This document shows positions 22,730 to 53,838 of a stretch of 64,000 nt of DNA, piece after piece. Source of the DNA: Burkholderiales bacterium (GTDB lineage Bacteria > Pseudomonadota > Gammaproteobacteria > Burkholderiales > SG8-39); contig JBCKKZ010000001.1 of assembly GCA_038904015.1 (NCBI GenBank), positions 14,906 to 78,905 of the forward strand, given 5' to 3'. The notes under the pieces were generated by a model, which was not told where the DNA came from, made no database searches, and saw only the letters and a program-made list of their open reading frames with translations. The translations under genes were made by a program, and so were the position numbers. The first letter of the stretch is position 1, and every line of letters begins with the position of its first letter.

Positions 22730-22739
22730 AGGAAGCGCT

Positions 22740-28551: not shown

Positions 28552-28591
28552 CCCGGAGGGGATTGATTCTCTTGAATCTGGATCACTACTG

Positions 28592-28795: not shown

Positions 28796-28797
28796 AT

Positions 28798-29396: not shown

Positions 29397-30359
29397 ATGA
29401 GGAACTACAGCATCCGCAAGCGCGTGCTCGTCACCGGCGGCGCCGGCTTCATCGGCTCGCACCTGTGCGATCGCCTGATCGCCGACGGGCACGACGTGCT
29501 GTGCGTGGACAACTTCTTCACCGGCACCAAGGACAACATCGCGCAGCTGATCGGTAATCCGCATTTCGAACTGATGCGCCACGACGTGACGTTTCCGCTG
29601 TTCGTTGAAGTGGACGAGATCTACAACCTCGCCTGCCCGGCGGCGCCGATCCACTACCAGTACGACCCGGTGCAGACCACCAAGACGAGCGTGCACGGCG
29701 CTATCAACATGCTGGGGCTTGCCAAGCGCGTGAAGGCGAAGATCCTGCAGGCCTCCACCAGCGAGGTCTACGGCGACCCCAAGGTGCACCCCCAGCGCGA
29801 GGACTACTGGGGCAACGTGAACCCGATCGGCCTGCGCGCCTGCTATGACGAAGGCAAGCGCTGCGCGGAGACGCTCTTCTTCGACTACCACCGCCAGCAC
29901 AAGCTGCGAATCAAGGTGGCACGTATCTTTAACACCTACGGCCCGCGCATGCACCCGAACGACGGGCGCGTGGTGTCGAACTTCATCGTCCAGGCGCTCA
30001 AGGGCGAGCCGATCACCGTCTACGGCGACGGCGGCCAGACACGCTCGTTCTGTTACGTGGACGATCTGGTCGAGGCGCTGATCCGCTTGATGGCAACAAA
30101 GGATAGCGTCGCCGGGCCGGTCAATCTGGGCAATCCGGGTGAATTCACCATTCTCGAGCTGGCGCAAAAGGTGATTGCCCTGACGCGCTCGAAATCCAGG
30201 ATCGTGAAGAAGAAATTGCCCAGGGACGACCCGCGGCAGCGCAAACCGGACATCGCCCTCGCCAAGCGCCACCTGTCGTGGCAACCCACGGTCGGGCTGG
30301 AAGCGGGTCTGAAGAAGACCATCGCCTACTTCCGCGCCGGCAAGACCAGCACGGCCTGA
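29397..30359 (+). CDS. uxs: UDP-glucuronate decarboxylase (UDP-xylose synthase, SDR family)
   Basis: [18 protein letters not shown]...STSEVYGDP...[11 protein letters not shown]...NTYGPRM...[14 protein letters not shown]. Full-length, 320 aa. Confidence 0.9.
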
Positions 30360-37381: not shown

Positions 37382-38578
37382 GTGAACCCCACCATCGCCC
37401 TCCCAAATTTGCTAGCCCGCCTATGGCATCACCTCAGCCAGCGCCGTCGGCGTCAATTCGGGCTGTTAATGGGCTTGATGCTGGTCAGTGCGTTCGCGGA
37501 AGTGGTTAGCTTGGGCGCCGTGTTGCCCTTCCTCGGCATACTCACTGCGCCCGATCGGGTGTTCAGCCACCCTATCGTCGCGGATGTGGCGCAGGCATGG
37601 GGCATCACCTCGGCCGATCAATTGGTGTTGCCCCTCACCGTCGCGTTTGTCACCGCAGCCCTGATAGCGGGAGCAATCCGCATCCTTTTATTGTGGGCCA
37701 GCACCCGGCTCGCGGTTGCCAGCGGTGCGGATCTCAGCATCGAGGTGTATCGCCGCACCCTCTACCAGCCCTACCGGGTGCATGTGGCCCGTAATAGCAG
37801 CGAGGTGATCAGCGGCATCACCAACAAGGTCAACGGCGTGGTGTTCGGGGTGCTGTTGCCATTGCTGACGTTGGCCAGTTCAATCGTATTGCTGGTGGCT
37901 ATCATGCTCGCCTTGATCGCCATCAATCCGGTGGTAGCCTCGGTGGCGGCTGTCGGTTTCGGTGCCAGTTACGCGTTGATCACGTGGATGTCCCGCCGAC
38001 GGCTGCATCGCAACAGCCAGCGCATCGCCCGCGAACAAACTCAAGTGGTCAAGGCCCTGCAAGAAGGCTTGGGCGGCATTCGCGATGTGCTGCTGGATGG
38101 GACGCAGCCAGTTTACTGCGACATCTACCGCCAGGCCGACCACCCATTGCGGCGAGCGCAGGGCAACAACTCCTTCATTGGCGGAAGCCCCCGTTACATC
38201 ATGGAAGCCCTGGGAATGGTGCTGATCGCCGCCTTGGCCTATGCCATTAGCCGTCAGGCCGGGGGCATCGCCACAGCCCTGCCAGTGCTCGGCGCGCAAC
38301 GCCTGCTACCGGCCCTGCAGCAGAGCTATAGCGCTTGGGCGAGCATTGCCGGCAGCCATGCCTCACTGGCCGATACCATCGCACTGCTCGATCAGCCTCT
38401 GCCGGCGGAGCTACTGCAACCCGCTCCCGCGCCGCTGCTCTTTCAGGACGCCATCCGCTTCGACGCCGTGCGCTTCCGCTACACCGGCGACGGCCCTTGG
38501 GTGCTGGATGGTCTCAATCTGACCATCCCCAAGGGCGCCCGTGTCGGCTTTGTCGGCAGAATGGCCAGGGCGATATGA
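37382..38578 (+). pseudogene. ABC exporter (MsbA-like TMD-NBD) truncated at the Walker A loop
   Basis: Six-helix TMD, then the start of the NBD: LNLTIPKGARVGFVG. The expected RSGSGKST is replaced by RMARAI and a stop. Confidence 0.7.
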
Positions 38579-38715
38579 AAAAGCTATTTATCTACCGTGA
38601 GTTACGCTACCGTGAGTCGGGCAGTGAAACAGGCGGAAAAGAGGGGGGTGTGAAAATGTCAAACGTAAGGCCTGACCCTGAGATTCGCTACATTCCCCAT
38701 GAACGACTTCACCCT

Positions 38716-38766
38716 AACCGTACAGCCCTCATCTGCGGCATCTCTGGCCAAGACGGGGCCTATTTG
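38716..38766 (+). pseudogene. GDP-mannose 4,6-dehydratase (gmd) 5' micro-fragment
   Basis: NRTALICGISGQDGAYL resembles the gmd Rossmann start (ALITGxTGQDGSYL). It terminates 6 codons later. Confidence 0.35.
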
Positions 38767-38791
38767 GACGCCGCCAAAAATTGATTTTGCC

Positions 38792-39622
38792 ATGACCCAC
38801 CCCCACACCCTCATCATCGAACCCGGCATGGCCGACCGCCATTACTGGCGCGACCTTTGGCGCTACCGCGAGCTGTTCTTTGTGCTGGCCTGGCGTGACA
38901 TTTCGGTGCGCTACAAGCAGACCATCATCGGCTTGGCCTGGGCGCTGATTCAACCCTTGTTAACCCTAGTGGTCCTCACCGTCATCTTCAGCAAAGTGGC
39001 CAAATTGCCCACCGAAGGCGCAGCGCCTTATGCGCTGCTGGTGTTTGCTGGCCTGCTGCCATGGCAACTGTTTGCCACATCACTCTCCGGCGCATCCGGT
39101 AGCCTGGTCGGCAATGCCAACCTCATTAGCAAGGTGTATTTCCCTCGGCTCATTGTGCCCACTGCTGCGGTGGTGGTGTCGTTTGTCGACTTTCTGGTCA
39201 GCTTTGTCATTTTGCTTGGGCTGATGCTGTGGTACCAGTTTTTGCCCGGCTGGCAAATCCTTACCCTGCCGCTGTTTGTGGCCATGGCCTTCTTGGCCAG
39301 CCTGGGACCGGGGCTTTGGATTACCGCGCTTAACGTCAAATACCGCGACTTCAGATACGTCATACCCTTCATCGTGCAGTTTGGCCTGTATGTGTCGCCG
39401 GTAGGTTTTAGCTCGTCGGTGGTGCCACCAGAGTGGCGACTGCTGTATTCACTTAACCCGGTGGTCGGCGTCATAGACGGCTTTCGCTGGGCCATCTTGG
39501 GTGGTGAATCCAACCTGTACATCCCCGGCTTCCTGCTAAGCTGGGCCGTCATCGCCTTCTTTTTGTGGCTAGGCATCCGCCAGTTCCGCAAGATGGAGAA
39601 AAGCTTCGCCGACCTGATCTAG
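38792..39622 (+). CDS. wzm: ABC-2 type polysaccharide export permease (Wzm)
   Basis: YWRDLWRYRELFFVLAWRDISVRYKQTIIGLAWALIQPLL, followed by 6 TM segments. Confidence 0.85.
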   Translation: MTHPHTLIIEPGMADRHYWRDLWRYRELFFVLAWRDISVRYKQTIIGLAWALIQPLLTLVVLTVIFSKVAKLPTEGAAPYALLVFAGLLPWQLFATSLSGASGSLVGNANLISKVYFPRLIVPTAAVVVSFVDFLVSFVILLGLMLWYQFLPGWQILTLPLFVAMAFLASLGPGLWITALNVKYRDFRYVIPFIVQFGLYVSPVGFSSSVVPPEWRLLYSLNPVVGVIDGFRWAILGGESNLYIPGFLLSWAVIAFFLWLGIRQFRKMEKSFADLI

Positions 39623-39676: not shown

Positions 39677-41011
39677 ATGTCCAATATAGCCATCTCCGTA
39701 GAAAACCTAAGCAAGTCGTACCTCATTGGCCACAACGCCGCCCAGTCCGAGCGTTACACCTCTCTGCGTGACGTTGTAGCCCGCAACGCCCGCAACCTGG
39801 CGCGCAAAACCCGCGATATGTTTAGTGGCCGAGCCATCGTGCAAGGTGATGAGGTTGAAGAATTCTGGGCGCTGAAGGATGTTTCTTTCGAAATCAAGCA
39901 GGGTGATCGCGTTGGCATCATCGGTCGCAATGGGGCGGGCAAATCCACGCTGCTGAAAATACTGAGCCGCATTACAGAACCCACATCGGGAAAGGTTTCC
40001 ATCAAGGGGCGCGTAGCAAGTCTGCTGGAAGTCGGTACGGGCTTCCACCCCGAGCTGACCGGACGGGAGAATATTTTTCTCAACGGCGCTATTCTCGGCA
40101 TGAGCAGGGCAGAAATAAAAAGCAAGTTCGATGAAATCGTCGCGTTTTCCGAAGTGGAAAAATTTCTCGACACCCCAGTTAAACGTTATTCCAGTGGAAT
40201 GTATGTGCGGCTGGCTTTTGCCGTGGCGGCACATCTGCAGCCTGAGATTCTCATCGTGGATGAGGTTCTTGCAGTGGGTGATGCGCAATTCCAAAAAAAA
40301 TGCATCGGAAAGATGGAAGATGTTAGCAAAGATGGTCGCACAGTATTGTTTGTAAGTCACAACATGGATGCTGTAAATAATCTATGCCATTCCGCTCTCA
40401 TGTTGGAGGGAGGGGTGATAACAAGAAAAGGGACTAGCTTTGACGTTACTAGGCAATACTTAAGTAGCGGACGCAGAGCGACTAACAATCTAAATTGGAT
40501 TAAACCGAATAATTTTAAAAATGATTTTGCTGATATCGTTGACATAATTGGATACTCTGTGCTGTCAGATTCTGGTCAAAATGACTCAATTATATTTAAA
40601 TCAAGAATATATTCAGTTGAAATCGATGCAAATATTAAATTAAGAAATCAAAACATTGTATTTTTCTTAAGCTATTTTTCAAGTTCCGGTGAGTTGCTTT
40701 TTGTTTCGGACTGTTATGACTGTCCGGAAAATTATGATGATTTGGGGGTTGGACGTATAACACTAAGTGTCAAGGTACCGGTTGAACTTTTTAATACAGG
40801 AAGCTATCACATGGAGCTTTCATGTGTTATTCATCACATGGGATGGCCGATGATGGGTGGTAAAGGGCAAATGATGGCCTTTGAGTTCGTAGATGACTCT
40901 CCGGCTACCAAAATGCAATTTACTGCAAATCACCCCTTTACGGGTTCGTCTAAGCCTGGCCTACTATCAGTCAAATTGCCATGGAGCATAAGGCAGTTTG
41001 CTCAGAGTTAA
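39677..41011 (+). CDS. wzt: ABC transporter ATP-binding protein Wzt with about 190-aa C-terminal extension
   Basis: Walker A GRNGAGKST, signature YSSGM, Walker B ILIVDE. The NBD ends near residue 250 and an extra C-terminal domain follows. Confidence 0.85.
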   Translation: MSNIAISVENLSKSYLIGHNAAQSERYTSLRDVVARNARNLARKTRDMFSGRAIVQGDEVEEFWALKDVSFEIKQGDRVGIIGRNGAGKSTLLKILSRITEPTSGKVSIKGRVASLLEVGTGFHPELTGRENIFLNGAILGMSRAEIKSKFDEIVAFSEVEKFLDTPVKRYSSGMYVRLAFAVAAHLQPEILIVDEVLAVGDAQFQKKCIGKMEDVSKDGRTVLFVSHNMDAVNNLCHSALMLEGGVITRKGTSFDVTRQYLSSGRRATNNLNWIKPNNFKNDFADIVDIIGYSVLSDSGQNDSIIFKSRIYSVEIDANIKLRNQNIVFFLSYFSSSGELLFVSDCYDCPENYDDLGVGRITLSVKVPVELFNTGSYHMELSCVIHHMGWPMMGGKGQMMAFEFVDDSPATKMQFTANHPFTGSSKPGLLSVKLPWSIRQFAQS

Positions 41012-41024: not shown

Positions 41025-42038
41025 ATGTCGATTAATGTAAAAATATCTTCCGGCTCGCCGGAGCTGTCATCGATTTTCCTTAGGCAAACACCCTCTGGTT
41101 CAGGGATTTGGGCAGATCATAAGTTCTTTGTAAACGAACATGTTGAACGCTGTGACTGGTGGATTATTTGTCACCAGTCCGCAGTCCAAAAACATGAAGT
41201 GACTATTTGCGACCCGGGGCATATTGTTTTTATCTCTATGGAGCCAACAGAAGGCTCAACCCCACATATTTTTTACAAGCAGTTCTCGAAATTACTGTTG
41301 TGCGATAGAAGCATACAACACCCTGATATCCAGTATGTTAATGGCACCACTTGGTGGACCGGAATTCAAGTTAAGTTTGAGGAATGTCACAAATTTCTAC
41401 CGACAGTATCTCAAGACTACGATACCTTTAAGAAAATGAGTTTGCCAATTAAGCAAAATCGTATTTCCGTTATTTGTTCAAATAACAAAGGGTTGCCTGG
41501 TCATAGGAAGCGACTTGAGTTTTTGGACAAGTTGCGATTGCATCCGATAGCTCGACATATCGATTTTTATGGCGGTGGGCATAACCATGTCTTCGACAAG
41601 CTGGATGCGATAGCACCTTATAAGTATCATTTGGTTCTTGAGAATAGTGTTGTTCCAGATTACTGGTCGGAAAAACTGGGCGATCCATTGTTAGGGTTTG
41701 CGCTCCCAATTTATTACGGCTGTCCGAATATTGAAAAGTATTTTTCAAAGAAATCACTAATACAAATAGATATTGATGATTTTGAAAAAACCGTTGCGAC
41801 TATGGAGCGCATAATAAAAGACGATATTTACGAAAGTTATCTTCCAGCAATTATCGAAGCAAGAAATCTGATTCTCGACCGCTACAACATATTCCAATTA
41901 ATGGCCGATGTCTGCAATGCACCAGCCACGAGATTTGTACAGTGCAGTGTCAGACCTGCGGGGCATCTAGTGCGGTCCTGGCCACGACGGCTTGCGCGTA
42001 AGTGGATCCACCGCTTGCGCGGAATTCAGTCCGATTAA
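41025..42038 (+). CDS. GT10-like (fucosyltransferase-type) glycosyltransferase
   Basis: [25 protein letters not shown] resembles the GT10 motif (FENS...YxTEKL). The ORF is AT-rich. Confidence 0.5.
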
Positions 42039-42058: not shown

Positions 42059-42835
42059 ATGAAAGCAGTGATTCTTGCCGGTGGCCTGGGCACGCGCATC
42101 AGCGAAGAAACCCACATCAAGCCCAAACCCATGATCGAGATCGGCAGCAAGCCCATCTTGTGGCACATCCTGAAGACCTACTCCCACCACGGCATCAATG
42201 ACTTCATCATTTGTTGTGGCTACAAGGGCTACATCATTAAAGAATACTTTGCCAACTATTTTTTGCACATGTCGGATGTCACCTTCGACATGAGCAAGAA
42301 CAGCATGGAGGTGCATCAGCAAAGCGCCGAGCCTTGGCGCGTAACGTTGGTGGACACGGGTGACGACACCATGACCGGTGGCCGCCTCAAGCGCGTCGCC
42401 TCCTACCTGCAAGGTGAAGAGGCCTTCTGCCTTACCTACGGCGATGGCGTGAGCGATGTCAACATCACCCAGCTCATAGCGTTTCACCGCGCCCACGGCC
42501 TGCAAGCCACACTCACCGCCACTTACCCGCCCAGTCGCTTTGGTGCGCTAGACATTCATGCAGACCAGCGCATCACCGCCTTCAAAGAAAAGCCTAAGGG
42601 CGACGGCGGCATGATCAACGGTGGCTTCTTCGTGCTCTCGCCCAAGGTGATCGACCTGATTGGCAACGACCAAGTCATTTGGGAGCGTGAGCCCCTCCAA
42701 ACGCTGGCCGCATCCAACCAACTCAAAGCCTTCCAGCATGAAGGCTTCTGGCAACCTATGGACACGTTGCGCGACAAGAATTACCTGGAAGAGCTTTGGC
42801 AATCCGGCAAAGCGCCGTGGAAGGTATGGGCATGA
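42059..42835 (+). CDS. rfbF: Glucose-1-phosphate cytidylyltransferase
   Basis: [37 protein letters not shown]...[12 protein letters not shown]. Confidence 0.9.
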
Positions 42836-43905
42836 ACCCATCATTCTGGAGCGGCAAAAAAGTATTTGTCACCGGCCACACCGGCTTCAAAGGGAGTTGG
42901 CTAAGCCTGTGGTTGCAGCAGCTAGATGCCCAGGTCACCGGCTACGCCCTCCAGCCGCCGACTAACCCCAGCCTGTTCGAAGTAGCGCAGGTGGCGCAGG
43001 GCATGAAATCCATCATTGGCGACATCCGCGATGGCACCATGTTGACCAATGCTATGCGACAGGCCGCGCCTGACATCGTCATCCACATGGCCGCCCAGCC
43101 GCTGGTGCGGCGCTCGTATGTTGACCCGGTCGAGACCTATTCCACCAACGTTATGGGCACCGCGCACCTGTTGGAAGCGGTACGGGAAACACCATCCGTG
43201 TGTGCCGTGGTCAACGTGACCACCGACAAGTGCTACGAAAACAAGGAATGGGTGTGGGGCTACCGTGAGAGCGAGCCTATGGGCGGCTTCGACCCCTACA
43301 GCAGCAGCAAAGGCTGCGCCGAATTGGTCACGGCAGCCTATCGCAACTCGTTCTTCAATGCAGCGAAACACAGCGAGCACCAAGTCGCCTTGGCAACGGC
43401 TAGAGCAGGCAACGTTATCGGTGGCGGCGACTGGGCCGAGGATCGGCTTATTCCAGACATCCTGCGGGCCATCGAAGCAGGCCAGAGCGTCAACATCCGC
43501 AACCCCCACGCCACCCGCCCCTGGCAGCATGTGCTAGAACCCCTCTCGGGCTACCTCGTACTCGCCGAAAAACTGAGTAGTGAGGCGGGGCAACAATACG
43601 CCGAAGGTTGGAATTTTGGGCCTCGCGATGAAGACGCACGCCCAGTGCAATGGATCGTCGAGCAGCTCACGCAGCAATGGGGCGATGGCGCAGCCTGGCA
43701 CCTTGACGGTGGCACGCACCCACACGAAGCCCATTGCCTCAAGCTAGACTGCTCGAAGGCACGCGCCTTGCTGGGCTGGAGCCCCCGTTGGCATTTGGGC
43801 CAAGCCCTGCAATCCATCATCGCCTGGCACAAGGCGCACCATCGCAACCAAGACATGCGGACTTTATGCTTGCAGCAAATCAACGACTACTCGACAGCCA
43901 CCTAA
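42832..43905 (+). CDS. rfbG: CDP-glucose 4,6-dehydratase
   Basis: [24 protein letters not shown]...[12 protein letters not shown]...[16 protein letters not shown] overlap with rfbF. Confidence 0.9.
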
Positions 43906-43926
43906 TTTTCATTTATTTCTCAATCC

Positions 43927-45249
43927 ATGCAAAACGCCAAAACCCAAGCCATCCGCGAGCAAATCGCCAAGCTGGTCGAAGAGTACGCCGCCATCGCCCT
44001 GGCCCCCGATCCATTCTTGCCCGGTGCCACCATGGTTCCCCCTTCGGGCAAGCTGCTAGACGCAGCCGAGCTCAAGAACATGGTCGAAGCCTCGCTTGAC
44101 GGCTGGCTAACCACAGGCCGTTTCAATGCTGAATTCGAGAAAAAGCTGGCAGCCTTCATCGGCGTCAAGCACCTGATCACCGTCAACTCGGGCTCGTCGG
44201 CCAACCTCGTCGCGTTCAGCACATTGACATCGCCCAAACTGGGCGAGCGGGCCATCAAACCAGGCGATGAAGTCATCGGTGTGGCGGCAGGTTTCCCCAC
44301 CACCGTCAACCCCATTCTTCAGTTTGGCGCCGTGCCGGTGTTTGTGGATGTGGACCGCCTCACCCACAACATTGACGCCAGCAAGATCGAAGCGGCCATC
44401 AGCCCCAAGACCAAGGCCATCATGCTGGCGCACTCGCTGGGCAACACCTTCAACCTGGATGTGGTCACGGCCCTGTGCAAAAAATACAACTTATGGCTGG
44501 TAGAAGACTGCTGTGATGCGCTGGGTAGCACCTACCGCGGCCAGATGGTCGGCACCTTTGGCGACATTGCCACTCTGAGCTTTTACCCGGCGCACCACAT
44601 CACCATGGGCGAGGGTGGGGCAGTATTTACCAAGCACGACGAACTTAAAGTTATTGCCGAGAGCTTCCGCGACTGGGGGCGGGATTGCTACTGCGCGCCC
44701 GGCAAAGACAACACTTGTGGTAAACGCTTTTGTTGGAAGCTGGGCGACCTGCCCGAGGGTTACGACCACAAATACACCTACAGCCACCTGGGCTACAACC
44801 TTAAAATCACCGATATGCAGGCGGCCTGTGGGCTGGCCCAGTTGGGCAAAGCCGCACAGTTTATCCAGGCCCGCAAGGACAACTTTGCCTTTCTGAAAGA
44901 ACGCCTGAAGGACTGCGAAGAGTTTGTGAATCTGCCCGAGCCGACCGAACACTCCGACCCCTCGTGGTTCGGATTTCCGATCACGCTAAAAGAAAACTGC
45001 CCGGTGACCCGGCTGGACTTGCTCACTTACCTGGATCAAAACAAGGTCGGCACTCGCCTGCTGTTTGCCGGCAACGTGACGCGCCAGCCCTACATGATCG
45101 GCGCCAACTACCGCATCAGCGGTGACCTGACCAATACCGACAACGTGATGAACAACACCTTCTGGATCGGTCTGCATCCTTCGCTGACACGTGAGATGAT
45201 GGAGTTTGCAGCGCGCAAGATTGAGACTTATCTTGGCGTGAATTTCTGA
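43927..45249 (+). CDS. rfbH: CDP-6-deoxy-D-xylo-4-hexulose 3-dehydrase (E1, RfbH/DdhC-type)
   Basis: ...[37 protein letters not shown]...[17 protein letters not shown]...RDWGRDCYC. 440 aa. Confidence 0.85.
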
Positions 45250-45387
45250 TTCTTGTATTTCCGAAAGTAAGACTTTTCCGAAATCCAGATATCCAAAACG
45301 CAAATGTAGAATTAGCCAACCAATGCCCATTAATTTATTAACCTCTGATTAGATCTCAAGAGTGCCGAGTTTGGCCCGGGTCTGGCC

Positions 45388-46832
45388 TCATGCGGCCAAG
45401 CGAAACATCTCCATTTTACGAGGGTCTTGCCTTTCGACGATGAATTTCGCGAGGAAATTGCGTTGGACGGCAGTCAAGAGAAATTCGGGCAGGCTCTGGC
45501 GTAGTGCATTGGCAACAACGAACTCAGATGGGGGAATGCCGGGGCGGATGGTTCGGAGCCAGGAGCCGAAGGACTCCCAGACGAGCTTGGGAAAGGCGAC
45601 CGCCAGGTACTGAAGCAATCCCTGACAGACGACACCGGCCTGGATGAAGACATGATAGGCGTGGATCTTGCGTTTGATGGCGTTGCGGTAGTCGAGGGAC
45701 TCACGATGAAGATATTGATTACCGTTGCGGCGGTGAAGCGGCTTCATGTCTTGCATCCAGAAATGGTAGGCGAATGAACCGATCAGACGAACAGCCTGTT
45801 TGAAGCTGTGTTCGATCTTGAAGCGCAGCCCATAGAGGCGAATGATCTCGATGGCACTCAAGGAGAGGTCCGTGCACATCAACAGGCAGGAACCTCTGGA
45901 AGGATGAATGACGGCCACGAAGCGCACGAGCCGGCCGACCGGACGCCACAGCAAATCGCAGACCCGATACTGGATCGTGACGTTGTGCTCGCCATAGACG
46001 GGGCTCGCGGCCGAGTGCGTGGGCTTGGGATCGTTGAGCAATGATTTGAGCTTGACCTTCGTACCGTAGAACCGGGGGCGGCCTCTTGTGCGGGGGCCAC
46101 TGTGCAAGTACGGAGCATAGGCGACCGCATTGGATCTCACCCGGGAGATCAGGTGGTTGTTCTGATCGAGCAAACCGTTGATGATTTTGCGAGCAGCGTA
46201 GTATGCATCGGCCACGAAGTAGAACGGCTCCTTGATCGCGACGATCTCGATCAGCGCGAGCATTTTGTCGAGCAAGGTACGCTCGAATCGCGATTGGACC
46301 ACACCAGACCTTCGTGAATGCGCACCGCCAGCGGTACCGCGAAGACGCTCTGAGCGGCCTGTACGAGCACGCTGACCGCCTGCAAGGAGTGCCCCATGAT
46401 GTATTCGGGTTTGGTGTTCGAATCCGACTGCTGATGCAGCAGCTTCACGCCCGGCATTTTCTTGCCGCACTTGGGTACTTTGATGCCATCCCCGACCAGG
46501 ACCCGCCGGCCATTGACGCGCAGCGGCTCAGGGAACAGCCGCAGCACCGCCTGTGTCCACAGCCCCGAGAGGCGATCGAGCTTCACGGCACCGCTATGAA
46601 AGCTATCGTGCAGCTTGTTGTAGAGGCGAGCCCGTAGTTTCAGTGCCCGCACGATGCTGGTTACGCCCAGCAGCTCCGTGCGCACCGTCAAGCCCACCAC
46701 GGCCGTGGCGAACCACATGAAGCTGCGCAGGCGTGAGAACGCCGGGCGCAGCAACCAGATCGCATTCCACCAGGCAATCCACAGCGACATCGCGCCCTCC
46801 GGTTCGTTGTTGTTGTCAATATAGTATAGCAT
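45388..46832 (-). pseudogene. DDE transposase split by a frameshift near 46260-46290
   Basis: ORF 46251-46832 (...RIHEGLVWSN) continues in another frame as ...RFERTLLDKMLALIEIV...FVADAYY... (45388-46470). Confidence 0.65.
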
Positions 46833-46847
46833 GTGTATGCTATATCA

Positions 46848-47165
46848 ATGACAAGCAAACGCCTCGATGAAATCCGAAAACGCATTGACAGGATCAAGGC
46901 AGAACTGGCCGCAATCGATGAAATGCGGCCCGGGTCGCTAACCCGCCAGTACAAAGACCCCCAGAACCAAAGCGGGGCCTACTACCAGCTCAGCTATACG
47001 CGGGAGATGAAGAGCCGAACCGACTACATTGCACGCGACTGCCTGCGCGATGTACGCCGCCAGATCGGCAACTACAAGCGCTTCAAAACCTTGAGCACAC
47101 AATGGATCGCCTTGAGCATTGAGCACAGTCGCCTCAAGATGAAACTGGCTCGCAGACCTCCTTGA
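46848..47165 (+). CDS. Small IS-borne protein (DUF6788-like)
   Basis: MTSKRLDEIRKRIDRIKAELAAIDEMRPGSLTRQYKDPQNQSGAYYQLSYTREMKSRTDYI. It lies inside the IRs. Confidence 0.4.
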   Translation: MTSKRLDEIRKRIDRIKAELAAIDEMRPGSLTRQYKDPQNQSGAYYQLSYTREMKSRTDYIARDCLRDVRRQIGNYKRFKTLSTQWIALSIEHSRLKMKLARRPP

Positions 47166-47188
47166 ACCGGCAGTGCTATGCTCACCTC

Positions 47189-47596
47189 ATGGGCAAACGG
47201 CAGGAGCAACATCCCTTCGAGGACAATCCCTTCCTCGAAGATTTTTTCGACTGGATGGGCTCTCCTGAAGGCGAGCTTTCCGGTGTGGTGTCCGATGCTG
47301 TTTGGATGTTGCTAGAAAAGGCCGATGTCGACGCCAAGAATCGAAAGATCATTTGGGAAGATGGGAAAGGGCTTTCGATTACTGAGTCCGTGCAGCGCAT
47401 TCACGCAGACCGCCCGGACTTTCCGCTCGAGCTGATCGAAACGCATCTGATCGGATGGCTCGAAATGGAATTCGCCCCACCAACCTATTCTCAGAAGCAA
47501 TTAGACGAGCTAGATCGGCTCACCGAAAAGTGGATCGAGGATCACGAGCGGCAAGCCGAGACCCCTCCAAAACGGGGGAGAACTCGGCACTCTTGA
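47189..47596 (+). CDS. Hypothetical IS-borne protein
   Basis: Acidic ORF of about 135 aa ending inside the right IR. I recognise no family. Confidence 0.3.
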   Translation: MGKRQEQHPFEDNPFLEDFFDWMGSPEGELSGVVSDAVWMLLEKADVDAKNRKIIWEDGKGLSITESVQRIHADRPDFPLELIETHLIGWLEMEFAPPTYSQKQLDELDRLTEKWIEDHERQAETPPKRGRTRHS

Positions 47597-47611
47597 GATT
47601 AGATAAATCCA

Positions 47612-49390
47612 ATGAAAAATAAGTCACTAGATGTTTACAAAAAAGCTTTCACCTCAAATTTTTTGTTCTTAAAGGGGGCAAACAACATTCAGGAAGCCTT
47701 CCTTCGTGCGATCCCAATCCCTGGATACGGATTCTTAGTGCCAGTAAGCAAAGCACACGAGGCCGATAACGAACTTCATGAAAAACTAACGGATTGGCGA
47801 AATGAAAATGTTAATGTCTATCCAACCCAATTCGTTGCAACTGTCGAAAGCACGAAAGCCTGGCTGAAAGATCGATTGCTTGCCGTAGATGACAGGATGT
47901 TATTTTTGATCGTTGATAATCAAGGTAAGGTTGCGGGACATATGGGGTTTAATGGATGTAATAACGATGATTTTCTTTTTGAAATAGACAATGTTGTTAG
48001 AGGTGAGCAAGCTGCTGTTAAAGGTTTTTTTTCTGCAGGCATGTTTGCCTTAATGGAATGGGCGAGAAAAACATTGAATGTGGAAGGGTTTTTTCTCCGA
48101 GTGATGGATGATAACCCTCATGCAATTGAATTTTATAAACGCAATGGATTTATAGAAGATTGCAGAATTCCTCTTTTTAGAGAAGAAAAAACTGGAGTGG
48201 TTTCCTATAGGGAAGCCAATAAAGATGAACAAGCATCTAAAACCTTCGTTCGCATGGTGTGGCAACCGGTTAGAGATACTATAGGAAAGTCATTAATTCT
48301 GACGGCTGGCCCATCAATTTCTGGTAGAGAGGCGGTATATTCGTTTGACGCAGCTGTAAATGGATGGAACAGTAACTGGTCAAAGTATCTAACATCTTTT
48401 GAAAAGCAATTTGCTGAATATGTTGGCGTAAAGTATGCCATGGCCACATCCAGTTGCACCGGTGCCTTACAAATCGCGTTGATGGCGCTTGATGTTGGTC
48501 CTGGGGACGAGGTTATCGTTCCAGATCAAACTTGGGTGGCTACTGCAAATGCTGTACGCTATGTTGGTGCAATACCCGTATTCGCAGATATCGAATTAGA
48601 TACCTGGAATATCGATGTGAGGTCTATTGAGTCACTTATTACCAGCAAAACTAAAGCTATCATGCCAGTGCACATGTACGGACACCCTGCCCGTATGACA
48701 GCAATAGTTGAATTGGCTAAGAAATATGGACTGAAAATTGTAGAAGACGCGGCACCTGCTATAGGTGCAGAGTGGGAAGGTAAACGTTGCGGCTCTTTCG
48801 GGGACTTTGGTGCATTTAGTTTTCAGGGCGCCAAACTGATGGTAACGGGCGAAGGTGGTATGTTGGTTACCAATGATGAGGCACTTTACCAAAAAGCATA
48901 CAAGATATGGGACCAAGGTCGTAACCCCTCCCGGGCTTTCTGGATTGATGTAGATGGTGTGAAATTCAAAATGTCCAATATTCAGGCAGCACTTGGTTTG
49001 GGTCAATTAGAACGAGTAGATGAACTCATTGAAATGAAACGTCGCTTGTTCTCTTGGTATCAAGAGGGACTTGATGGTGTTCCATTTATTACGATGAATA
49101 AAGAGGTTGAAGGCGCACGTAGTATCTACTGGATGAGCAGTTTGTTTATTGATGAAGCCGCGCCTGTTAGCCGCGACGAATTAATAAAGTTGCTAAAAAG
49201 TAAAAACGTTGATACCCGTCCTGTCTTCCCTGCTATCAGTCAATATCCGATTTGGCCACGCCAACAGCAGCCTCAACCAACAGCGATGCGCGTAGGTCTT
49301 GGTGCAATGAATCTGCCTAGTGGTGTTTGCTTAACAAAAGATGAGGTAATGTATGTTTCAGCGCAAATTCGGCAGATTTTGAGCGTCTAA
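47612..49390 (+). CDS. Fusion: GNAT N-acetyltransferase plus DegT/DnrJ/EryC1-type sugar aminotransferase
   Basis: The N-terminal roughly 210 aa is GNAT-like (...RVMDDNPHAIEFYKRNGF). The C-terminus carries ...ATSSCTGALQIAL..., ...IVEDAAPAIGA... and FSFQGAKLMVTGEGG (PLP lysine). Confidence 0.75.
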   Translation: MKNKSLDVYKKAFTSNFLFLKGANNIQEAFLRAIPIPGYGFLVPVSKAHEADNELHEKLTDWRNENVNVYPTQFVATVESTKAWLKDRLLAVDDRMLFLIVDNQGKVAGHMGFNGCNNDDFLFEIDNVVRGEQAAVKGFFSAGMFALMEWARKTLNVEGFFLRVMDDNPHAIEFYKRNGFIEDCRIPLFREEKTGVVSYREANKDEQASKTFVRMVWQPVRDTIGKSLILTAGPSISGREAVYSFDAAVNGWNSNWSKYLTSFEKQFAEYVGVKYAMATSSCTGALQIALMALDVGPGDEVIVPDQTWVATANAVRYVGAIPVFADIELDTWNIDVRSIESLITSKTKAIMPVHMYGHPARMTAIVELAKKYGLKIVEDAAPAIGAEWEGKRCGSFGDFGAFSFQGAKLMVTGEGGMLVTNDEALYQKAYKIWDQGRNPSRAFWIDVDGVKFKMSNIQAALGLGQLERVDELIEMKRRLFSWYQEGLDGVPFITMNKEVEGARSIYWMSSLFIDEAAPVSRDELIKLLKSKNVDTRPVFPAISQYPIWPRQQQPQPTAMRVGLGAMNLPSGVCLTKDEVMYVSAQIRQILSV

Positions 49391-49392
49391 TT

Positions 49393-50208
49393 ATGGTTGA
49401 AACAACAGTTTTGGCGAGAGCGATCCGTCGCAATGCAGTGCAAATGGTTCGTCGTGCAAAGGCCTCGCACATTGCAAGTGCCTTGTCAATTTGCGACATC
49501 GTGGCTGTCCTTTACGGGCGGGTACTCACAATAAATCCGGCGATGCCAAAAGCAGCCGATCGAGACCGATTTATACTAAGTAAGGGTCACGGTTGCGTGG
49601 CCGTGTATGCAGCCCTGGCCGAATGTGGTTTTATCGCGAAAGAAGACTTACTTACCTACGGCCAAGATCACTCTCCACTGATGAACCACATCAGTCACAA
49701 GGTGCCCGGCGTAGAGTTTTCCACAGGATCGCTAGGGCATGGCCTACCGTTTGGCACTGGCAAGGCACTGGCAGCCAAGCGAATGAAGGCTGCTTGGAAA
49801 ACCTATGTGCTGCTAAGTGACGGCGAACTCGGTGAAGGCAGTAACTGGGAGGCGATGATGTTTGCATCTCATCATGGGCTCGATAACCTCGTCGCCATCG
49901 TCGATTACAACAAACTTCAAAGTTTGACGACCGTGGACAAAACACTGCGCATCGAGCCCCTAGCGGCAAAATTTTCTGCATTCGGATGGAGCGTACAGGA
50001 GGTCGACGGACACGATCACGCGGCCTTGGCCACTGCATTGGGCTCAGCCCCGTGGGCGCCCGGTCGGCCATCCATTCTGATCGCCCACACAACAAAAGGT
50101 AAAGGCGTTAGTTTCATGGAAAACCGCGTCGAGTGGCACTATCGCACCCCAAGTACAGAGCAACTGGCCCAGGCACTCAACGAACTTCAAGAGCAAAGTC
50201 ATGCGTAA
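49393..50208 (+). CDS. Transketolase, N-terminal (ThDP-binding) subunit
   Basis: SHIASALSICDIVAVLY...DRFILSKGHGCVAVYAAL...GSLGHGLPFGTGKALA...LLSDGELGEGSNWEA...VDYNKLQ. Confidence 0.85.
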   Translation: MVETTVLARAIRRNAVQMVRRAKASHIASALSICDIVAVLYGRVLTINPAMPKAADRDRFILSKGHGCVAVYAALAECGFIAKEDLLTYGQDHSPLMNHISHKVPGVEFSTGSLGHGLPFGTGKALAAKRMKAAWKTYVLLSDGELGEGSNWEAMMFASHHGLDNLVAIVDYNKLQSLTTVDKTLRIEPLAAKFSAFGWSVQEVDGHDHAALATALGSAPWAPGRPSILIAHTTKGKGVSFMENRVEWHYRTPSTEQLAQALNELQEQSHA

Positions 50209-51097
50209 CGCATTTGTAGAAGAGCTGGTCGAACTAGCTGCGATTCATGATCACATTGCATTGGTGGTGGGTGATCTCGGATATTCCGTGGTTGAACCGT
50301 TTGCCGACCGCTTCCCTGATCGGTTCATTAATGCCGGTGTGGCGGAACAAAATATGACCGGACTGGCTGCTGGCATGGCATCCGAGGGCTATCACATCTT
50401 CACGTACTCGATTGCCAACTTTCCGACTTTTAGATGTGCCGAGCAGATTCGCAACGACGTGGATTACCACCAGCTGCCGGTTACCGTGGTGGCAGTTGGT
50501 GGCGGTTTGGCCTACGGAGCGCTAGGGTATTCACACCATGCGGTGCAGGACTACGCACTCATGCGTTCTTTCCCAAATATGCTGATAGCAGCCCCGGGTG
50601 ACCCGATGGAGGTGCGAGCGTGCATGCGCTATCTGGTGGCCCACCCGCAACCGTCGTATTTGCGTCTCGGCAAGGCGGGTGAGCCTAATTTTCACAGCGC
50701 AGTGCCTGAAGTCCAACCAGGCAGGTGGCTGAAGGTTGCAGACAGTCAACATAGTGCGGACGGGAAACGAACACTCTTGTCGACGGGCGCGACACTGGGC
50801 ATTGCGATGGACTGGCGTAATGCGCCAGAGTACGAGCAACACAGCGTCTATTCGCTACCGCTATGGAGCATGGCCAGCAAAGCAGAGCAGGTCGCCGCCG
50901 CCAAAAAATTCGACGAAATCGTTACGTTAGAGGACCACCTTGTCGACGGTGGATTTGGTTCATGGATGATGGAAGCTATTGTTGGCAAGCCAGGAGTAGG
51001 CGCGAGGATCGTAGTTCATGCTCTAAAGTCGGATGTCTGTGGAACGGTGGGCTCGCAGAGCACGCTGAACACACTGGGTGGGCTTGGCATGTCTTGA
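50201..51097 (+). CDS. Transketolase, C-terminal (pyrimidine-binding) subunit
   Basis: RFINAGVAEQNMTGLAAGMASEGYHIFTYSIANF...RNDVDYHQLPVTVVAVGGG...GYSHH. 8-nt overlap with the N-terminal subunit gene. Confidence 0.85.
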   Translation: MRNAFVEELVELAAIHDHIALVVGDLGYSVVEPFADRFPDRFINAGVAEQNMTGLAAGMASEGYHIFTYSIANFPTFRCAEQIRNDVDYHQLPVTVVAVGGGLAYGALGYSHHAVQDYALMRSFPNMLIAAPGDPMEVRACMRYLVAHPQPSYLRLGKAGEPNFHSAVPEVQPGRWLKVADSQHSADGKRTLLSTGATLGIAMDWRNAPEYEQHSVYSLPLWSMASKAEQVAAAKKFDEIVTLEDHLVDGGFGSWMMEAIVGKPGVGARIVVHALKSDVCGTVGSQSTLNTLGGLGMS

Positions 51098-51205: not shown

Positions 51206-52153
51206 ATGAAAAAAATACAAATAATTATATTATCTAGAGATAGAGTTAATTACCTTCGTGAGTGTATAAAATCCGTCACAGAACAAAAAATAGAAAACTT
51301 TGAGCTTGAAATATTAATATCTGACAGCTCAGAAACAGATACTGTAGAAACATTTATTAAAAATTCATATCCTTCTCTAAGATATATTCGAAGAGCGCCA
51401 TCAAGATCGGTATGGGATCATTTCAGACTTGCGATTAAAGATGCTTCGGGTGATTATATCGTTATATTTCACGATGATGATATCCTCTATCAGAATTATT
51501 GTTTAGAAATGCTTGCCGCATTTGAACGATATCCTGACGCATCGGCAATCGGATGCAATGCAATTACAATTGATAAGCAAGGACGAGAAGCTGGGCTTCA
51601 TTTCACACGCCAACAAAATAAGATTATCATTGACGAGAAGTGGTTTTTAAGTCAATACATTCCCAACCGCCCTGCTACCACAGGGCATCCCCCATTTCCT
51701 TCTTATTGTTATCGATTTTCAGCATTGGATATTAATCACGTTAATGAAAACGATGGAGGTGCCTGTGCGGATGTGACTTTCATCTCGAAGAAAGTTCAGT
51801 ATGGACCAATAATATGGTTGGTAGAGCCTCTTATGAAATACAGAGTCCACAATCAATCTGGTACAGCAGGGCTTACGCTTAATGATTATAGAAAATTATG
51901 GCGCTATATGGAATTGACTGGACTTAATAAACATGAGAATCCATTTCTTGATTGGCGATATAGTGTATGGTATTCATTATATTTCAAAAAAAAGTGCGGA
52001 AATAAAAAATACAAATTGATCATTCCATCAACGTCGCTAGATGCACTAATTCACAAATCATACCTGATGCGAAGAATATTTTGGCCACGCCTTACATACA
52101 TGCGAATGTTGCTCGGATATATTTGGTGGTTTATTTTTGTTCGAAAAACTTAA
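51206..52153 (+). CDS. GT2-family glycosyltransferase
   Basis: IQIIILSRDRVNYLRECIKSV...ILISDSSETD...FHDDDILY. Very AT-rich. Confidence 0.7.
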   Translation: MKKIQIIILSRDRVNYLRECIKSVTEQKIENFELEILISDSSETDTVETFIKNSYPSLRYIRRAPSRSVWDHFRLAIKDASGDYIVIFHDDDILYQNYCLEMLAAFERYPDASAIGCNAITIDKQGREAGLHFTRQQNKIIIDEKWFLSQYIPNRPATTGHPPFPSYCYRFSALDINHVNENDGGACADVTFISKKVQYGPIIWLVEPLMKYRVHNQSGTAGLTLNDYRKLWRYMELTGLNKHENPFLDWRYSVWYSLYFKKKCGNKKYKLIIPSTSLDALIHKSYLMRRIFWPRLTYMRMLLGYIWWFIFVRKT

Positions 52154-52166: not shown

Positions 52167-53414
52167 TCAGTAGAAATCGTGGGCGAGTTTTGGCTCTGGT
52201 AGTTTGCCAAGTGCATGATAGAGCGCGATTTCTGTGATGCGGAAGGTTCTGAAGCCGTAAGATTTTCTCATAGTGACTTTGGCTTTGTTGTTCAGTCCCT
52301 CGATGACGCCGCTTGAGAACGCCTTGCGGGCACGGAAATAGTTGAGTAACAGTTCGCGGTGCGCACGCAGGGTGCGGGCGAACTTCTTCATCGGCTCGAT
52401 GCGCGAGCGCATCACCTGCGTGGTCCACTGGTCGAGGAATTTGCCTGCCCAGGTGGGCGAATCGTAATCCCAGAAGTTCTGGAAGGATTCCTTGAGCAGG
52501 TATGCGCGCACGCTCGCCAGGTTGTAGCGCAGGACATCGCGTAGCTTGACGCGCTGGTGGTCAGTGAGGTTCTCGGGGCGTTTGAGCAGGCACCAGCGCG
52601 ACTTCTTGAGTACCGGCTCATAGCCATCCTGGACCATGCGCCGGGCTTCGGCGGCCCGCACGTCATCAAGGGCGAGGTTCATCTTGGCCACGACGTGGAA
52701 GCGATCCAGGATGTTGAGCGCATTGGTGCAGTGCCTGGCGATCAGTTTCAGGTAGGGCTTCCACATGTCCGAGCAGACGAACTCGATCTTCTGGGCAAGC
52801 TCCTGGCCGATCAGGGCGAAGAACTTCTCGAAGCTCTCGACGGTACGCTCCTGGCCGATCCAGAGCAGGCGCACGCAACCGGCCTCGATCTGATAAACCA
52901 GCGTCAGGTACGTGTGGCCGCGACCATACTGGATTTCGTCCACGCCGATGGCGCGGATCGGTCCGAGCGCGCGGTGCGCCAGTCCCCACTGCACGACATA
53001 CTCGACGGCCTGGCAGACCTTCTCCCAACTGGTGTGGAAGCTTTGCGCCGTCTCCTTCCACGACAGCTTGCGCGCCCAGTGCGCCAAGTACAGCATGTAG
53101 GCGCGCGTCAGTGTGTGCTTGCCCATGGCCCACGGTACTTCCTCGACCTTCACCCCACAGGCGCGGCACTGCACCCGCCGCATGCCGTACAGTAACCGCA
53201 CCGCGAAGCCCCACATCGGAATGAACTCGAAGCCCCGTTCGGGGAGCCGGTCGTAGCCGGCGGCGGGCCGGGTGCAACCCGAGCAGCGTGGTCTCGAGCC
53301 GCGGCGCGGCCGCACCTGGACCTCGATGGTCTTCGCCGATACGTTGAGTTTGGCGCCGTCGTAGACGAAGCCGGGGAAGTGATGACAGGCATTGAGCAAA
53401 CGGGTCAACAGCAT
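52167..53414 (-). CDS. ISL3-family transposase
   Basis: MLLTRLLNACHHFPGFVYDG...CSGCTRPAAGYD...GVDEIQYGRGHTYLTLVY...ILDRFHVV...SGVIEGLNNKAKV. Confidence 0.85.
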   Translation of the reverse strand: MLLTRLLNACHHFPGFVYDGAKLNVSAKTIEVQVRPRRGSRPRCSGCTRPAAGYDRLPERGFEFIPMWGFAVRLLYGMRRVQCRACGVKVEEVPWAMGKHTLTRAYMLYLAHWARKLSWKETAQSFHTSWEKVCQAVEYVVQWGLAHRALGPIRAIGVDEIQYGRGHTYLTLVYQIEAGCVRLLWIGQERTVESFEKFFALIGQELAQKIEFVCSDMWKPYLKLIARHCTNALNILDRFHVVAKMNLALDDVRAAEARRMVQDGYEPVLKKSRWCLLKRPENLTDHQRVKLRDVLRYNLASVRAYLLKESFQNFWDYDSPTWAGKFLDQWTTQVMRSRIEPMKKFARTLRAHRELLLNYFRARKAFSSGVIEGLNNKAKVTMRKSYGFRTFRITEIALYHALGKLPEPKLAHDFY

Positions 53415-53838
53415 GGCAGCAAAGCGTCGCGTAGTTGATAACACGACGATTATCCCAGCCAAGGCCACTGCCCTCGACCGGCTCTGCCCCGACCTGTCGA
53501 GCTGGCCCGAATTGTGGAAGATCGAGCAGGCTGATGTTGCCATCGGAGAACGCATCGTCGAGATCATCCAACCCTTCCTGCTCGATCTGCTGCGCCATGG
53601 GCTTGCCGACAAGACGCTGGCTCGCCACCGCGATCACATCCAGATGCTCGGTGGAGAACTCATCCGCCGTCACCACGACGATCCTTCCCTTGCCAAGCGC
53701 GCTGTCCGCGACGTGATGCTCGATCTCGTCGACGAGGAGAGCGGTCCGCTCATCTGGCCGCGCATAACCGAGTCAGCGCAGAACTCATTCGACGCTACTT
53801 GCCGACGACTGTACCGGTTCCTACAGCAAAGCGTCTGA
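53413..53838 (+). CDS. Hypothetical protein carried inside the ISL3 element
   Basis: The 141-aa ORF fills the otherwise unexplained 460 bp between the transposase start and the right IR. Protein-like composition, no family recognised. Confidence 0.35.
   Translation: MAAKRRVVDNTTIIPAKATALDRLCPDLSSWPELWKIEQADVAIGERIVEIIQPFLLDLLRHGLADKTLARHRDHIQMLGGELIRRHHDDPSLAKRAVRDVMLDLVDEESGPLIWPRITESAQNSFDATCRRLYRFLQQSV

Follow-up and report, generated by a model that had tools for sequence, protein, structure and literature searches.

What sugar is made by a gene cluster that opens like a classical CDP (cytidine diphosphate)-3,6-dideoxyhexose pathway and then departs from it? This question is raised by a 64-kb stretch of DNA from a Burkholderiales bacterium (hereafter, the window), in which rfbF, rfbG and rfbH are followed by a single gene that fuses a GNAT N-acetyltransferase to a DegT-type sugar aminotransferase, and by the genes for the N and C subunits of a transketolase-like, thiamine diphosphate (ThDP)-dependent enzyme (Table 1). 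We lean towards the view that these genes form a five-gene cassette, rfbF-rfbG-rfbH-(GNAT-aminotransferase)-transketolase N/C, for the synthesis of a branched-chain CDP-octose. More tentatively, and with the balance tipping slightly the other way, we propose that the two-subunit transketolase-like family is the first with a natural ketone acceptor, that it branches CDP-4-keto-deoxyhexoses at C-4, and that the branched intermediate is transaminated and N-acetylated in the variant found here.

Gene identities were assigned from a map of open reading frames (ORFs) together with Pfam and NCBIfam profile searches. An initial annotation of the window had assigned rfbF-rfbG-rfbH to the first three steps of CDP-3,6-dideoxyhexose synthesis, and all three proteins score above their equivalog cut-offs; the fusion and the split transketolase that it had described were likewise recovered, each where it had been placed. 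The rfbF start codon, an ATG at position 42059, is the same as that of the homolog in the metagenomic contig L001, while the rfbG frame is open from 42796 and has a probable ATG at 42832 that overlaps the rfbF stop codon. Further downstream, 2 bp separate the fusion stop codon from the N-subunit gene, and the N- and C-subunit genes overlap by 8 bp.

A search for this gene combination in other genomes found it conserved and contiguous in many of them; thus, it is not peculiar to the window but belongs to a widespread family. A contiguous cassette, free of the insertion sequence (IS) that lies within it in the window, is present in metagenomic contigs L001-L004 (89-99% protein identity), in Crenobacter CP031337, CP040966 and further loci. 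When the window was compared with L001 by blastn, positions 42059-45252 matched at 87% and positions 47603-51092 at 95%, and there was no match outside both blocks. Therefore, the five genes constitute a 6.7-kb cassette placed in different clusters, and these comparisons indicate that the cassette is horizontally exchanged. The claim that the block was imported, made earlier from its low G+C content, is supported by the 87-95% DNA identity over 6.7 kb to metagenomic contigs with unrelated flanks; G+C is 36-60% over the polysaccharide genes and 67% in the first 10 kb of the window. The break in identity from 87% to 95% falls in the rfbH-fusion spacer, at the IS site, and suggests a recombination joint in this spacer.

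For the N subunit, one genome per species was scanned, giving 322 relatives from Burkholderiales, Neisseriales, sphingomonads, Magnetococcales, Bacteroidota and others; the best 80 (60-83% identity) were used for the analysis of genomic context. rfbF/rfbG were found within 8 kb of the N-subunit gene in 69 of these best 80 of 322 relatives, the rest being mostly short contigs, and pentose-phosphate genes were never neighbours of the transketolase genes at the 80 loci. Thus, a ThDP carboligase is linked to ddh genes at 69 of 80 loci, and its action on a keto sugar is predicted. Clustering of all ORFs at the 80 loci revealed five architectures (with F, G and H for the rfb genes, and E3 for the ddhD/rfbI-type reductase): (E3)-F-G-H-SDR-transketolase; (E3)-F-G-H-SDR-FkbM methyltransferase-transketolase; F-G-H-transketolase-SDR; F-G-H-fusion-transketolase; and, in sphingomonads, transketolase-F-G. 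The short-chain dehydrogenase/reductase of these modules (the module SDR) was present at 52 loci, the fusion or its aminotransferase at nine, and both at none. Similarly, no module SDR, and thus no candidate for a YerF-type reductase, was found in the window cassette or in other fusion-type loci.

Variant transketolase arrangements were observed in sphingomonads and other Alphaproteobacteria (L038, L039, L043, L045, L048, L056) and in L058 and L068. In some of these, the transketolase genes stand ahead of rfbF-rfbG with no adjoining rfbH; in others, a TylCIII-like C-methyltransferase with a C-terminal Methyltransf_14 domain is encoded beside them. CDP-4-keto-6-deoxyglucose or C-methylated intermediates may also be substrates of the transketolase. 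The rfbFGH-transketolase module also occurs in flagellar loci. In a Rhodoferax metagenome-assembled genome (MAG; JBKJOV010000017, L005/L009), it is bordered by flhDC/motAB on one side and two flagellin genes on the other and adjoins a gene for a 2263-aa TPR/GT41 protein; and in a Rhodocyclaceae MAG (L073), a flagellin gene is close to the fusion variant. These loci suggest that flagellin is glycosylated with a sugar of this class.

Is the split transketolase an ordinary enzyme of central metabolism, which happens to lie in the cluster or which boosts the supply of sugar-phosphate precursors? Both halves are named transketolase by Pfam and NCBIfam, and the ThDP/Mg-binding motif, the activating Glu and the catalytic His are all present. 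The best solved matches were the split transketolase of C. hydrogenoformans and then human transketolase; to the former, the N subunit scored only 246 bits (N chain, 6yak) and the C subunit only 125 bits (6yaj). All NCBIfam transketolase models scored below their cut-offs for both subunits; NF004559 gave 269 for the N subunit and 105 for the C subunit against a cut-off of 488, although this is a full-length model against which half-length subunits score low anyway.

We aligned 61-70 family members with the C. hydrogenoformans and human transketolases. In the N subunit, the equivalents of human His37, His77, His110, His258 and Asp155 were invariant in 70 members, and in the C subunit the equivalents of human Glu366 and Arg318 and of yeast His481 were kept. 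By contrast, three residues of the C subunit that bind phosphate or hydroxyl groups were replaced throughout the family (human numbering): His416 by Gly100 in 61/61 members, Asp424 by Leu108 in 60/61 and Arg474 by Lys158 in 61/61. In a wider sample of the 150 best representatives of 50%-identity clusters (36-92% identity), Gly was present at the His416 site in all sequences covering the position, and Asp at the Asp424 site in one only. These three human residues correspond to H461, D469 and R520 of E. coli transketolase, of which we take H461 to be a sugar-phosphate binding residue. The equivalent of E. coli R358 is kept in the family, and the S385 position varies. In E. coli transketolase, R358, S385, D469 and R520 determine acceptor specificity (PMC7661550). 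Together, the CDP-sugar context, the three replacements and the sub-cut-off scores led us to reject an ordinary central transketolase, a possibility that the initial annotation had left open; both the context and the substrate-channel residues differ from those of such an enzyme, and we regard this explanation as extremely improbable. Instead, the alignments indicate that the pair is a specialised clade with a remodelled substrate channel.

Which C2 unit would such an enzyme transfer? His99 of the N subunit, the equivalent of E. coli H100, was kept in 70/70 members. H100 is consistently Phe in 1-deoxy-D-xylulose 5-phosphate (DXP) synthase, and the H100F/L mutations raise pyruvate use (PMC7661550). 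Because the His that is replaced by Phe in DXP synthases is kept, the alignment favours a hydroxylated donor, from which the branch would be hydroxyacetyl and not acetyl.

The fusion consists of a GNAT part (approximately residues 1-225; Pfam Acetyltransf_1/3/4 at residues 50-180) and a DegT aminotransferase part (approximately residues 226-592; DegT_DnrJ_EryC1 at residues 247-586, 375 bits). The aminotransferase domain matches GDP-perosamine synthase 3bn1 with 299 bits, and the Lys in FSFQGAKLMVTGEGG that binds pyridoxal phosphate aligns with the catalytic Lys of that enzyme, identifying the domain as an aminotransferase and not a dehydratase; for the GNAT domain, there was no informative solved relative (best 22 bits). 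The fusion has a length of 584-613 aa in every locus of the fusion type (D-type), is carried by Paraburkholderia xenovorans, three Chromobacterium species, Crenobacter, a Rhodocyclaceae MAG, Sediminibacterium and others, and its homologs have only generic names in databases. A metagenome scan yielded 374 relatives of the aminotransferase. Among those with at least 47% identity whose loci extend downstream, the transketolase genes are directly downstream in approximately 20, and they are upstream in L113. Below approximately 46% identity, the homologs are generic, only two having a weak (33-34% identity) N-subunit match. In L106, L107, L109 and L116, an aminotransferase with 54-75% identity is encoded beside the transketolase genes without a fused GNAT domain, and L116 encodes its GNAT in an ORF of its own; therefore, the fusion is frequent, not obligatory.

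The role of the transketolase is illuminated by L091, a 1.87-Mb metagenomic contig, in which rfbF-rfbG-rfbH-fusion is followed first by a gene encoding a TPP_enzyme_N/M/C protein of 571 aa and next by a GT2 glycosyltransferase gene. The L091 fusion is 73% identical to that of the window, and its gene overlaps the TPP_enzyme gene by 4 bp. The 571-aa protein scored 565 bits to PDB 5ahk and at most 248 bits to genuine acetolactate synthases, and it was below the cut-off of every NCBIfam model for acetohydroxyacid synthase (AHAS). We take 5ahk to be YerE of Pseudomonas protegens (PpYerE); a published review attests to the existence of a PpYerE structure but goes no further. No reductase is encoded nearby in L091, and no protein with TPP_enzyme domains was found among the scanned window ORFs of 35-63 kb. 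YerE transfers activated acetaldehyde as a C2 branch onto CDP-3,6-dideoxy-4-keto-glucose (PMC12247030). Because two unrelated ThDP carboligases occupy the same slot after the same fusion, these arrangements imply that the transketolase and the YerE-like enzyme do the same job, i.e. C-4 branching. Moreover, because L091 lacks a reductase and the fusion and SDRs are mutually exclusive, the branch ketone is most plausibly the substrate of the fusion, which would act in the place of YerF but by aminating and N-acetylating this ketone. With hundreds of members in genomes of Beta-, Gamma- and Alphaproteobacteria, Bacteroidota and other phyla, the transketolase-like family may be a non-orthologous replacement of YerE in the synthesis of O-antigens, capsules and flagellin glycans.

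Alternatively, the fusion could act on the ring ketone, giving a CDP-4-acetamido-3,4,6-trideoxyhexose, in analogy to SpnQ/SpnR in forosamine synthesis and to perosamine synthase with its N-acetyltransferase, while the transketolase would serve a second sugar or provide an acyl or ketol donor. A GNAT-aminotransferase fusion fits amination followed by acetylation, the aminotransferase domain is closest to a ring C-4 enzyme whose catalytic Lys it shares, and BPSS0419-0422 of B. pseudomallei are listed as rfbF/rfbG/rfbH plus an aminotransferase (PMC4275268). However, amination at C-4 leaves the transketolase without a ketone, despite its linkage to CDP-4-keto-sugar genes in 69 of 80 loci and its position after the aminotransferase in the approximately 20 metagenome loci that extend downstream. 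Nor does it explain why, in L091, the slot behind the fusion is taken by a YerE-like enzyme without a neighbouring reductase, or why SDR and fusion are mutually exclusive. We consider C-4 amination rather unlikely.

RfbH is 72% identical to the E1 enzyme of Yersinia pseudotuberculosis (PDB 3bcx; 686 bits), compared with approximately 165 bits for ColD, and the catalytic His that replaces Lys is conserved in it, as are all four [2Fe-2S] cysteines, including the DCCD motif. The catalytic His and the Fe-S motif are features of E1-type 3-dehydrases (reviewed in PMC8987622). Because of the identity to the Yersinia E1 and the kept His and four cysteines, RfbH is a true, electron-requiring E1. A ColD-type, E3-independent RfbH, which the initial annotation had also considered, was rejected on the same scores and residues, RfbH falling with E1 and not with ColD.

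From where does this E1 obtain its electrons? With the cluster-linked Fer2/FAD/NAD protein of Aquincola (L008) as the tblastn query, no E3 reductase was detected in the 64 kb (best E-value 1.8); an E3 elsewhere in the window was thus rejected, and the absence of ddhD/rfbI reported earlier was confirmed. As a distinguishing signal, however, this absence fails, since RfbH is still an Fe-S E1 in need of electrons, and E3 was absent within 10 kb at 42 of the 60 transketolase-linked rfbH loci, the His and Cys being kept in all 60 RfbH proteins. Because so many comparable loci are without an E3, its absence is not diagnostic for the window locus. No dedicated E3 (Fer2 + FAD_binding_6 + NAD_binding_1) was found within 8-10 kb at any fusion-type locus. 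Among L009-L088, E3 (ddhD-like) genes are confined to SDR-type architectures and never accompany the fusion type; identity to the window RfbH is 69-77% at E3-bearing loci and up to 90-95% at E3-less loci. SpnQ, an E1-type enzyme, is served by general ferredoxin or flavodoxin reductases (PMC8987622), and this precedent argues that an E1 without a dedicated E3 is workable.

A terminal 4-ketoreductase or epimerase of the Abe, Prt, Tyv or Asc type was not found within the cassette by Pfam and NCBIfam searches. The earlier claim that the window lacks such an enzyme, therefore, stands for the cassette but not strictly for the window, in which an intact generic SDR, 32% identical to a module SDR, is encoded 12 kb upstream of the cassette (29397-30359). 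Could the pathway then be classical, with an E3 and a 4-reductase supplied from beyond the window or by this SDR, to give an abequose- or paratose-type sugar to which the fusion and the transketolase are unrelated? RfbH is a standard E1, and the cluster runs past the 3' end of the window, both of which fit such a route, as does the SDR itself. Yet this SDR matches no NCBIfam equivalog model above its cut-off and adjoins the asparagine synthase (AsnB)-GT4 gene, in a block other than the cassette. Moreover, the five genes stay together, contiguous and closely spaced, in genomic surroundings that are unrelated, and no fusion-type locus has an E3 or a module SDR within 8-10 kb. In our judgement, a classical route is very unlikely.

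The branched-sugar pathway towards which we lean would proceed as follows. RfbF and RfbG would make CDP-4-keto-6-deoxyglucose, as indicated by their equivalog-level homology, and RfbH would remove the 3-OH to give CDP-4-keto-3,6-dideoxyglucose, using electrons presumably delivered by a reductase encoded elsewhere, i.e. a general ferredoxin/flavodoxin system as for SpnQ. Next, the split transketolase would place a ThDP-bound C2 unit on the C-4 ketone, creating a tertiary alcohol and a side-chain ketone. From the kept donor-site His, we judge dihydroxyethyl to be the most likely unit, so that the branch would be hydroxyacetyl. The genomic context, the active-site signature and the YerE-like enzyme that displaces the transketolase in L091 suggest this step. 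The side-chain ketone would then be aminated by the aminotransferase domain of the fusion and N-acetylated by its GNAT domain, a role to which the mutual exclusivity points, since the fusion holds the place of the short-chain reductase (the YerF role) in sister cassettes. The predicted product is CDP-3,6-dideoxy-4-C-(1-acetamido-2-hydroxyethyl)hexose, which the adjacent GT2 would add to a polysaccharide exported by Wzm/Wzt. To our knowledge, amino-branched sugars of the 4-C-(1-acetamido-2-hydroxyethyl)-3,6-dideoxyhexose class have not been described in any glycan. The initial annotation had already proposed that the 4-keto intermediate is aminated and acetylated and/or branched or extended by a transketolase-type C2 transfer. 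The conserved cassette, the CDP-glucose context, the remodelled channel and the YerE-like swap in L091 support branching with subsequent amination and acetylation, the chemistry itself remaining inferred.

Several points weigh against this pathway. The YerE-like displacement was seen at one locus only, and the identity of 5ahk as PpYerE is presumed. The nearest solved relative of the aminotransferase, GDP-perosamine synthase, is a ring C-4 aminotransferase, and C-4 amination would itself be chemically natural. No reductase serving E1 was found near any fusion-type locus, the donor substrate is assigned by inference only, and the IS may render the cassette non-functional in this organism. Finally, no cassette member has a known product or enzyme activity, and acceptance of a ketone has yet to be demonstrated for any transketolase (PMC12247030).

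The initial annotation had read the operon as continuing after an IS. This IS701-family element, in the rfbH-fusion spacer, does not belong to the operon design but is a secondary insertion splitting the cassette, since L001-L004 carry an IS-free version in which the cassette is contiguous and the gap between rfbH and the fusion is approximately 70 bp; in L001, a 56-bp spacer stands where the window has the IS. Its terminal inverted repeats comprise 33 nt and are 82% complementary, TAG/TTAG is present at both ends, and the IS701/IS4-type transposase is split over two overlapping minus-strand ORFs, with two further ORFs on the plus strand (Table 1). The element is unusually long for an IS701-like IS (2.25 kb), and it had no match among PLSDB plasmids.

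Because the IS ends 12 bp upstream of the fusion ATG, expression of the fusion and of both transketolase genes downstream is uncertain. A promoter and terminator scan around the IS gave weak consensus matches only; an outward -35-like hexamer in the right repeat has a paired -10 that overlaps the fusion ATG and, thus, provides no usable promoter argument. The locus could be a once-functional cassette that IS insertions have silenced, so that no such sugar is made in this organism. Besides the position of the IS701-like element, the three transposase genes in the cluster, the upstream SDR fragments and an ABC transporter ORF with a membrane domain only fit such decay. By contrast, all five cassette ORFs are full length (fusion, N and C subunits of 592, 271 and 298 aa, compared with 592, 271 and 306 aa in IS-free homologs), indicating a recent or tolerated insertion. 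We regard silencing as unlikely, if deserving of serious attention; in any case, it bears on expression in this strain and not on what the cassette encodes.

The genes for Wzm, Wzt and a GT10-like glycosyltransferase upstream of the cassette point to an ABC-transporter-dependent polysaccharide, and the GT2 downstream is a candidate transferase for the cassette product. A GT2 gene directly follows the transketolase genes in L001 and L090 and the YerE-like gene in L091, and is separated by one gene in L089; the GT2 of the window is not homologous to that of L001. Downstream of the cassette are the GT2 gene, an ISL3 transposase gene, six GT4 genes and two methyltransferase genes, and the polysaccharide cluster continues past the window, with a multi-pass membrane protein ORF running off its 3' end. 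At the other end of the window, a separate set of genes for exopolysaccharide assembly and export was observed on the minus strand (1044-8629). Together with the asparagine synthase-GT4 fusion, this set indicates that two or more polysaccharide systems are encoded in the window. The region at approximately 11600-29000 is gene-poor and fragmented and looks like decayed or mosaic DNA. The 398-aa ORF ahead of wzm is possibly a truncated gene. A tRNA scan of the window found no tRNA.

Table 1. Positions of the cassette genes and of other features of the window.
Feature	Position	Strand	Evidence or remark
Wzy_C ligase-like (exopolysaccharide set)	1044-2468	-	
Wzz/GNVR/P-loop tyrosine-kinase-like (exopolysaccharide set)	3310-5553	-	
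Beta-barrel protein (exopolysaccharide set)	6206-7402	-	BBP2_2
Sel1-repeat protein (exopolysaccharide set)	7571-8629	-	
SDR fragment	17263-17862		
ATPase	19789-21123		AAA_14/DUF4143
SDR fragment	21538-22323		
Subtilase	26064-26993		
Generic SDR	29397-30359		intact
Asparagine synthase-GT4 fusion	30363-33335		990 aa
Transposase	35490-37268		DDE_Tnp_1, 592 aa
ABC transporter ORF	37382-38578		membrane domain only
wzm	38699..39622	+	ABC2_membrane match
wzt	39677..41011	+	ABC_tran match
GT10-like glycosyltransferase, directly upstream of rfbF	41025..42038	+	Glyco_transf_10 match
rfbF/ddhA, glucose-1-phosphate cytidylyltransferase	42059..42835	+	TIGR02623 equivalog, 478 bits vs cut-off 300
rfbG/ddhB, CDP-glucose 4,6-dehydratase	42832..43905	+	TIGR02622 equivalog, 528 bits vs cut-off 278
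rfbH/ddhC, E1-type pyridoxamine phosphate (PMP)/[2Fe-2S] CDP-4-keto-6-deoxyglucose 3-dehydrase	43927..45249	+	NF011936, 744 bits vs 423
IS701-family element in rfbH-fusion spacer	45353..47599	.	2247 bp; transposase NF049999, DDE_Tnp_1, DDE_5 matches
IS terminal inverted repeats	45353-45385 / 47567-47599		
IS transposase ORFs	45388-46470, 46251-46832	-	
IS DUF6788 ORF	46833-47165	+	
IS 144-aa ORF	47162-47596	+	
GNAT N-acetyltransferase fused to DegT-type sugar aminotransferase	47612..49390	+	single 592-aa ORF, Pfam
Transketolase-like N subunit (ThDP/PP domain, Transketolase_N)	49393..50208	+	PF00456, 151 bits
Transketolase-like C subunit (Pyr domain, Transket_pyr)	50201..51097	+	PF02779, 101 bits
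GT2 glycosyltransferase, directly downstream of cassette	51206..52153	+	PF00535, 59 bits
ISL3-family transposase, second IS in cluster	52167..53612	-	PF01610, 251 bits
Multi-pass membrane protein ORF	~62790-64000		runs off 3' end

Branched-chain deoxysugars shape bacterial surface antigenicity, and ThDP enzymes that build branched sugars are wanted as biocatalysts for chiral tertiary alcohols. The cassette offers a soluble, two-gene and widespread candidate, the predicted substrate of which, CDP-4-keto-3,6-dideoxyglucose, can be made with known enzymes; and cultured carriers, among them Crenobacter (CP031337), Chromobacterium subtsugae PRAA4-1, C. sphagni, Chromobacterium sp. CV08 and Paraburkholderia xenovorans RL17-329-BIC-A, are usable for genetics and glycan nuclear magnetic resonance. 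The Gly/Leu/Lys active-site signature is diagnostic for finding more members, and the proposed function would correct the 'transketolase' and 'perosamine synthetase' labels that hundreds of genes now routinely carry. Moreover, O-antigens, capsules and flagellin glycans are predicted from it to contain new sugars.

How does the cassette compare with known systems? With the classical CDP-3,6-dideoxyhexose pathways (abequose, paratose, tyvelose and ascarylose), it shares RfbF, RfbG and RfbH at the equivalog level, including the E1 His and Fe-S motif. These pathways add RfbI together with RfbJ, RfbS or RfbE, whereas the window cassette is without E3, 4-reductase and epimerase and has two extra enzyme types instead. 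In the capsule cluster of B. pseudomallei, rfbF, rfbG, rfbH and an aminotransferase gene are consecutive (BPSS0419-BPSS0422; PMC4275268). In TDP-forosamine synthesis, SpnQ is likewise an E1-type Fe-S 3-dehydrase without a cluster-encoded E3 (PMC8987622) and is followed by a DegT aminotransferase, SpnR; that pathway differs by its TDP carrier, 2,6-dideoxy substrate and ring C-4 amination, and by having no ThDP enzyme. GDP-perosamine synthase (Per, 3bn1) and its separate N-acetyltransferase share the logic of amination followed by N-acetylation of a 6-deoxy sugar; by contrast, the GNAT of the window is fused N-terminally, the carrier is CDP by context, and the target ketone is proposed to be exocyclic.

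The split transketolase of C. hydrogenoformans (6yak/6yaj), a genuine transketolase, has the same two-subunit architecture and the same cofactor-binding and catalytic residues as the window enzyme. Like the human enzyme, it has the substrate-binding His, Asp and Arg that are exchanged for Gly, Leu and Lys in the window C subunit. In the miharamycin, amipurimycin and 13 other Streptomyces clusters, hydroxyacetyl branching of keto sugars is a proposed function of split-gene transketolases, and according to the same 2025 review the use of a ketone acceptor has not been demonstrated for any transketolase, the candidates coming from Streptomyces clusters only (PMC12247030). In both the Streptomyces and the window enzymes, two genes encode the transketolase and a keto-sugar acceptor is proposed, and neither has been characterised in vitro. 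The Streptomyces enzymes belong to secondary-metabolite clusters, those of nucleoside antibiotics, whereas the window family is tied to CDP-sugars in Gram-negative surface-glycan and flagellar loci. In the literature, we found no description of a Gram-negative CDP-sugar-linked transketolase gene combination; coverage was incomplete, and this is absence of evidence only.

The closest parallel is the yersiniose A pathway of Y. pseudotuberculosis O:6 (DdhA-D, YerE and YerF), with which the first three enzymes are shared, RfbH being 72% identical. In both, a ThDP enzyme is encoded beside the ddh genes, and C2 branching at C-4 followed by processing of the branch ketone is predicted for the window. 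The two differ in that the ThDP enzyme of the window is of the two-subunit transketolase class whereas YerE is an AHAS-like flavoprotein, that its donor is probably a hydroxylated ketol or hydroxypyruvate whereas YerE uses pyruvate, that the branch ketone is probably aminated and N-acetylated by the fusion whereas YerF reduces it, and that the window cassette is without a linked ddhD. In total, with YerE and YerF absent, the cassette is not a member of the yersiniose pathway but resembles it in its working.

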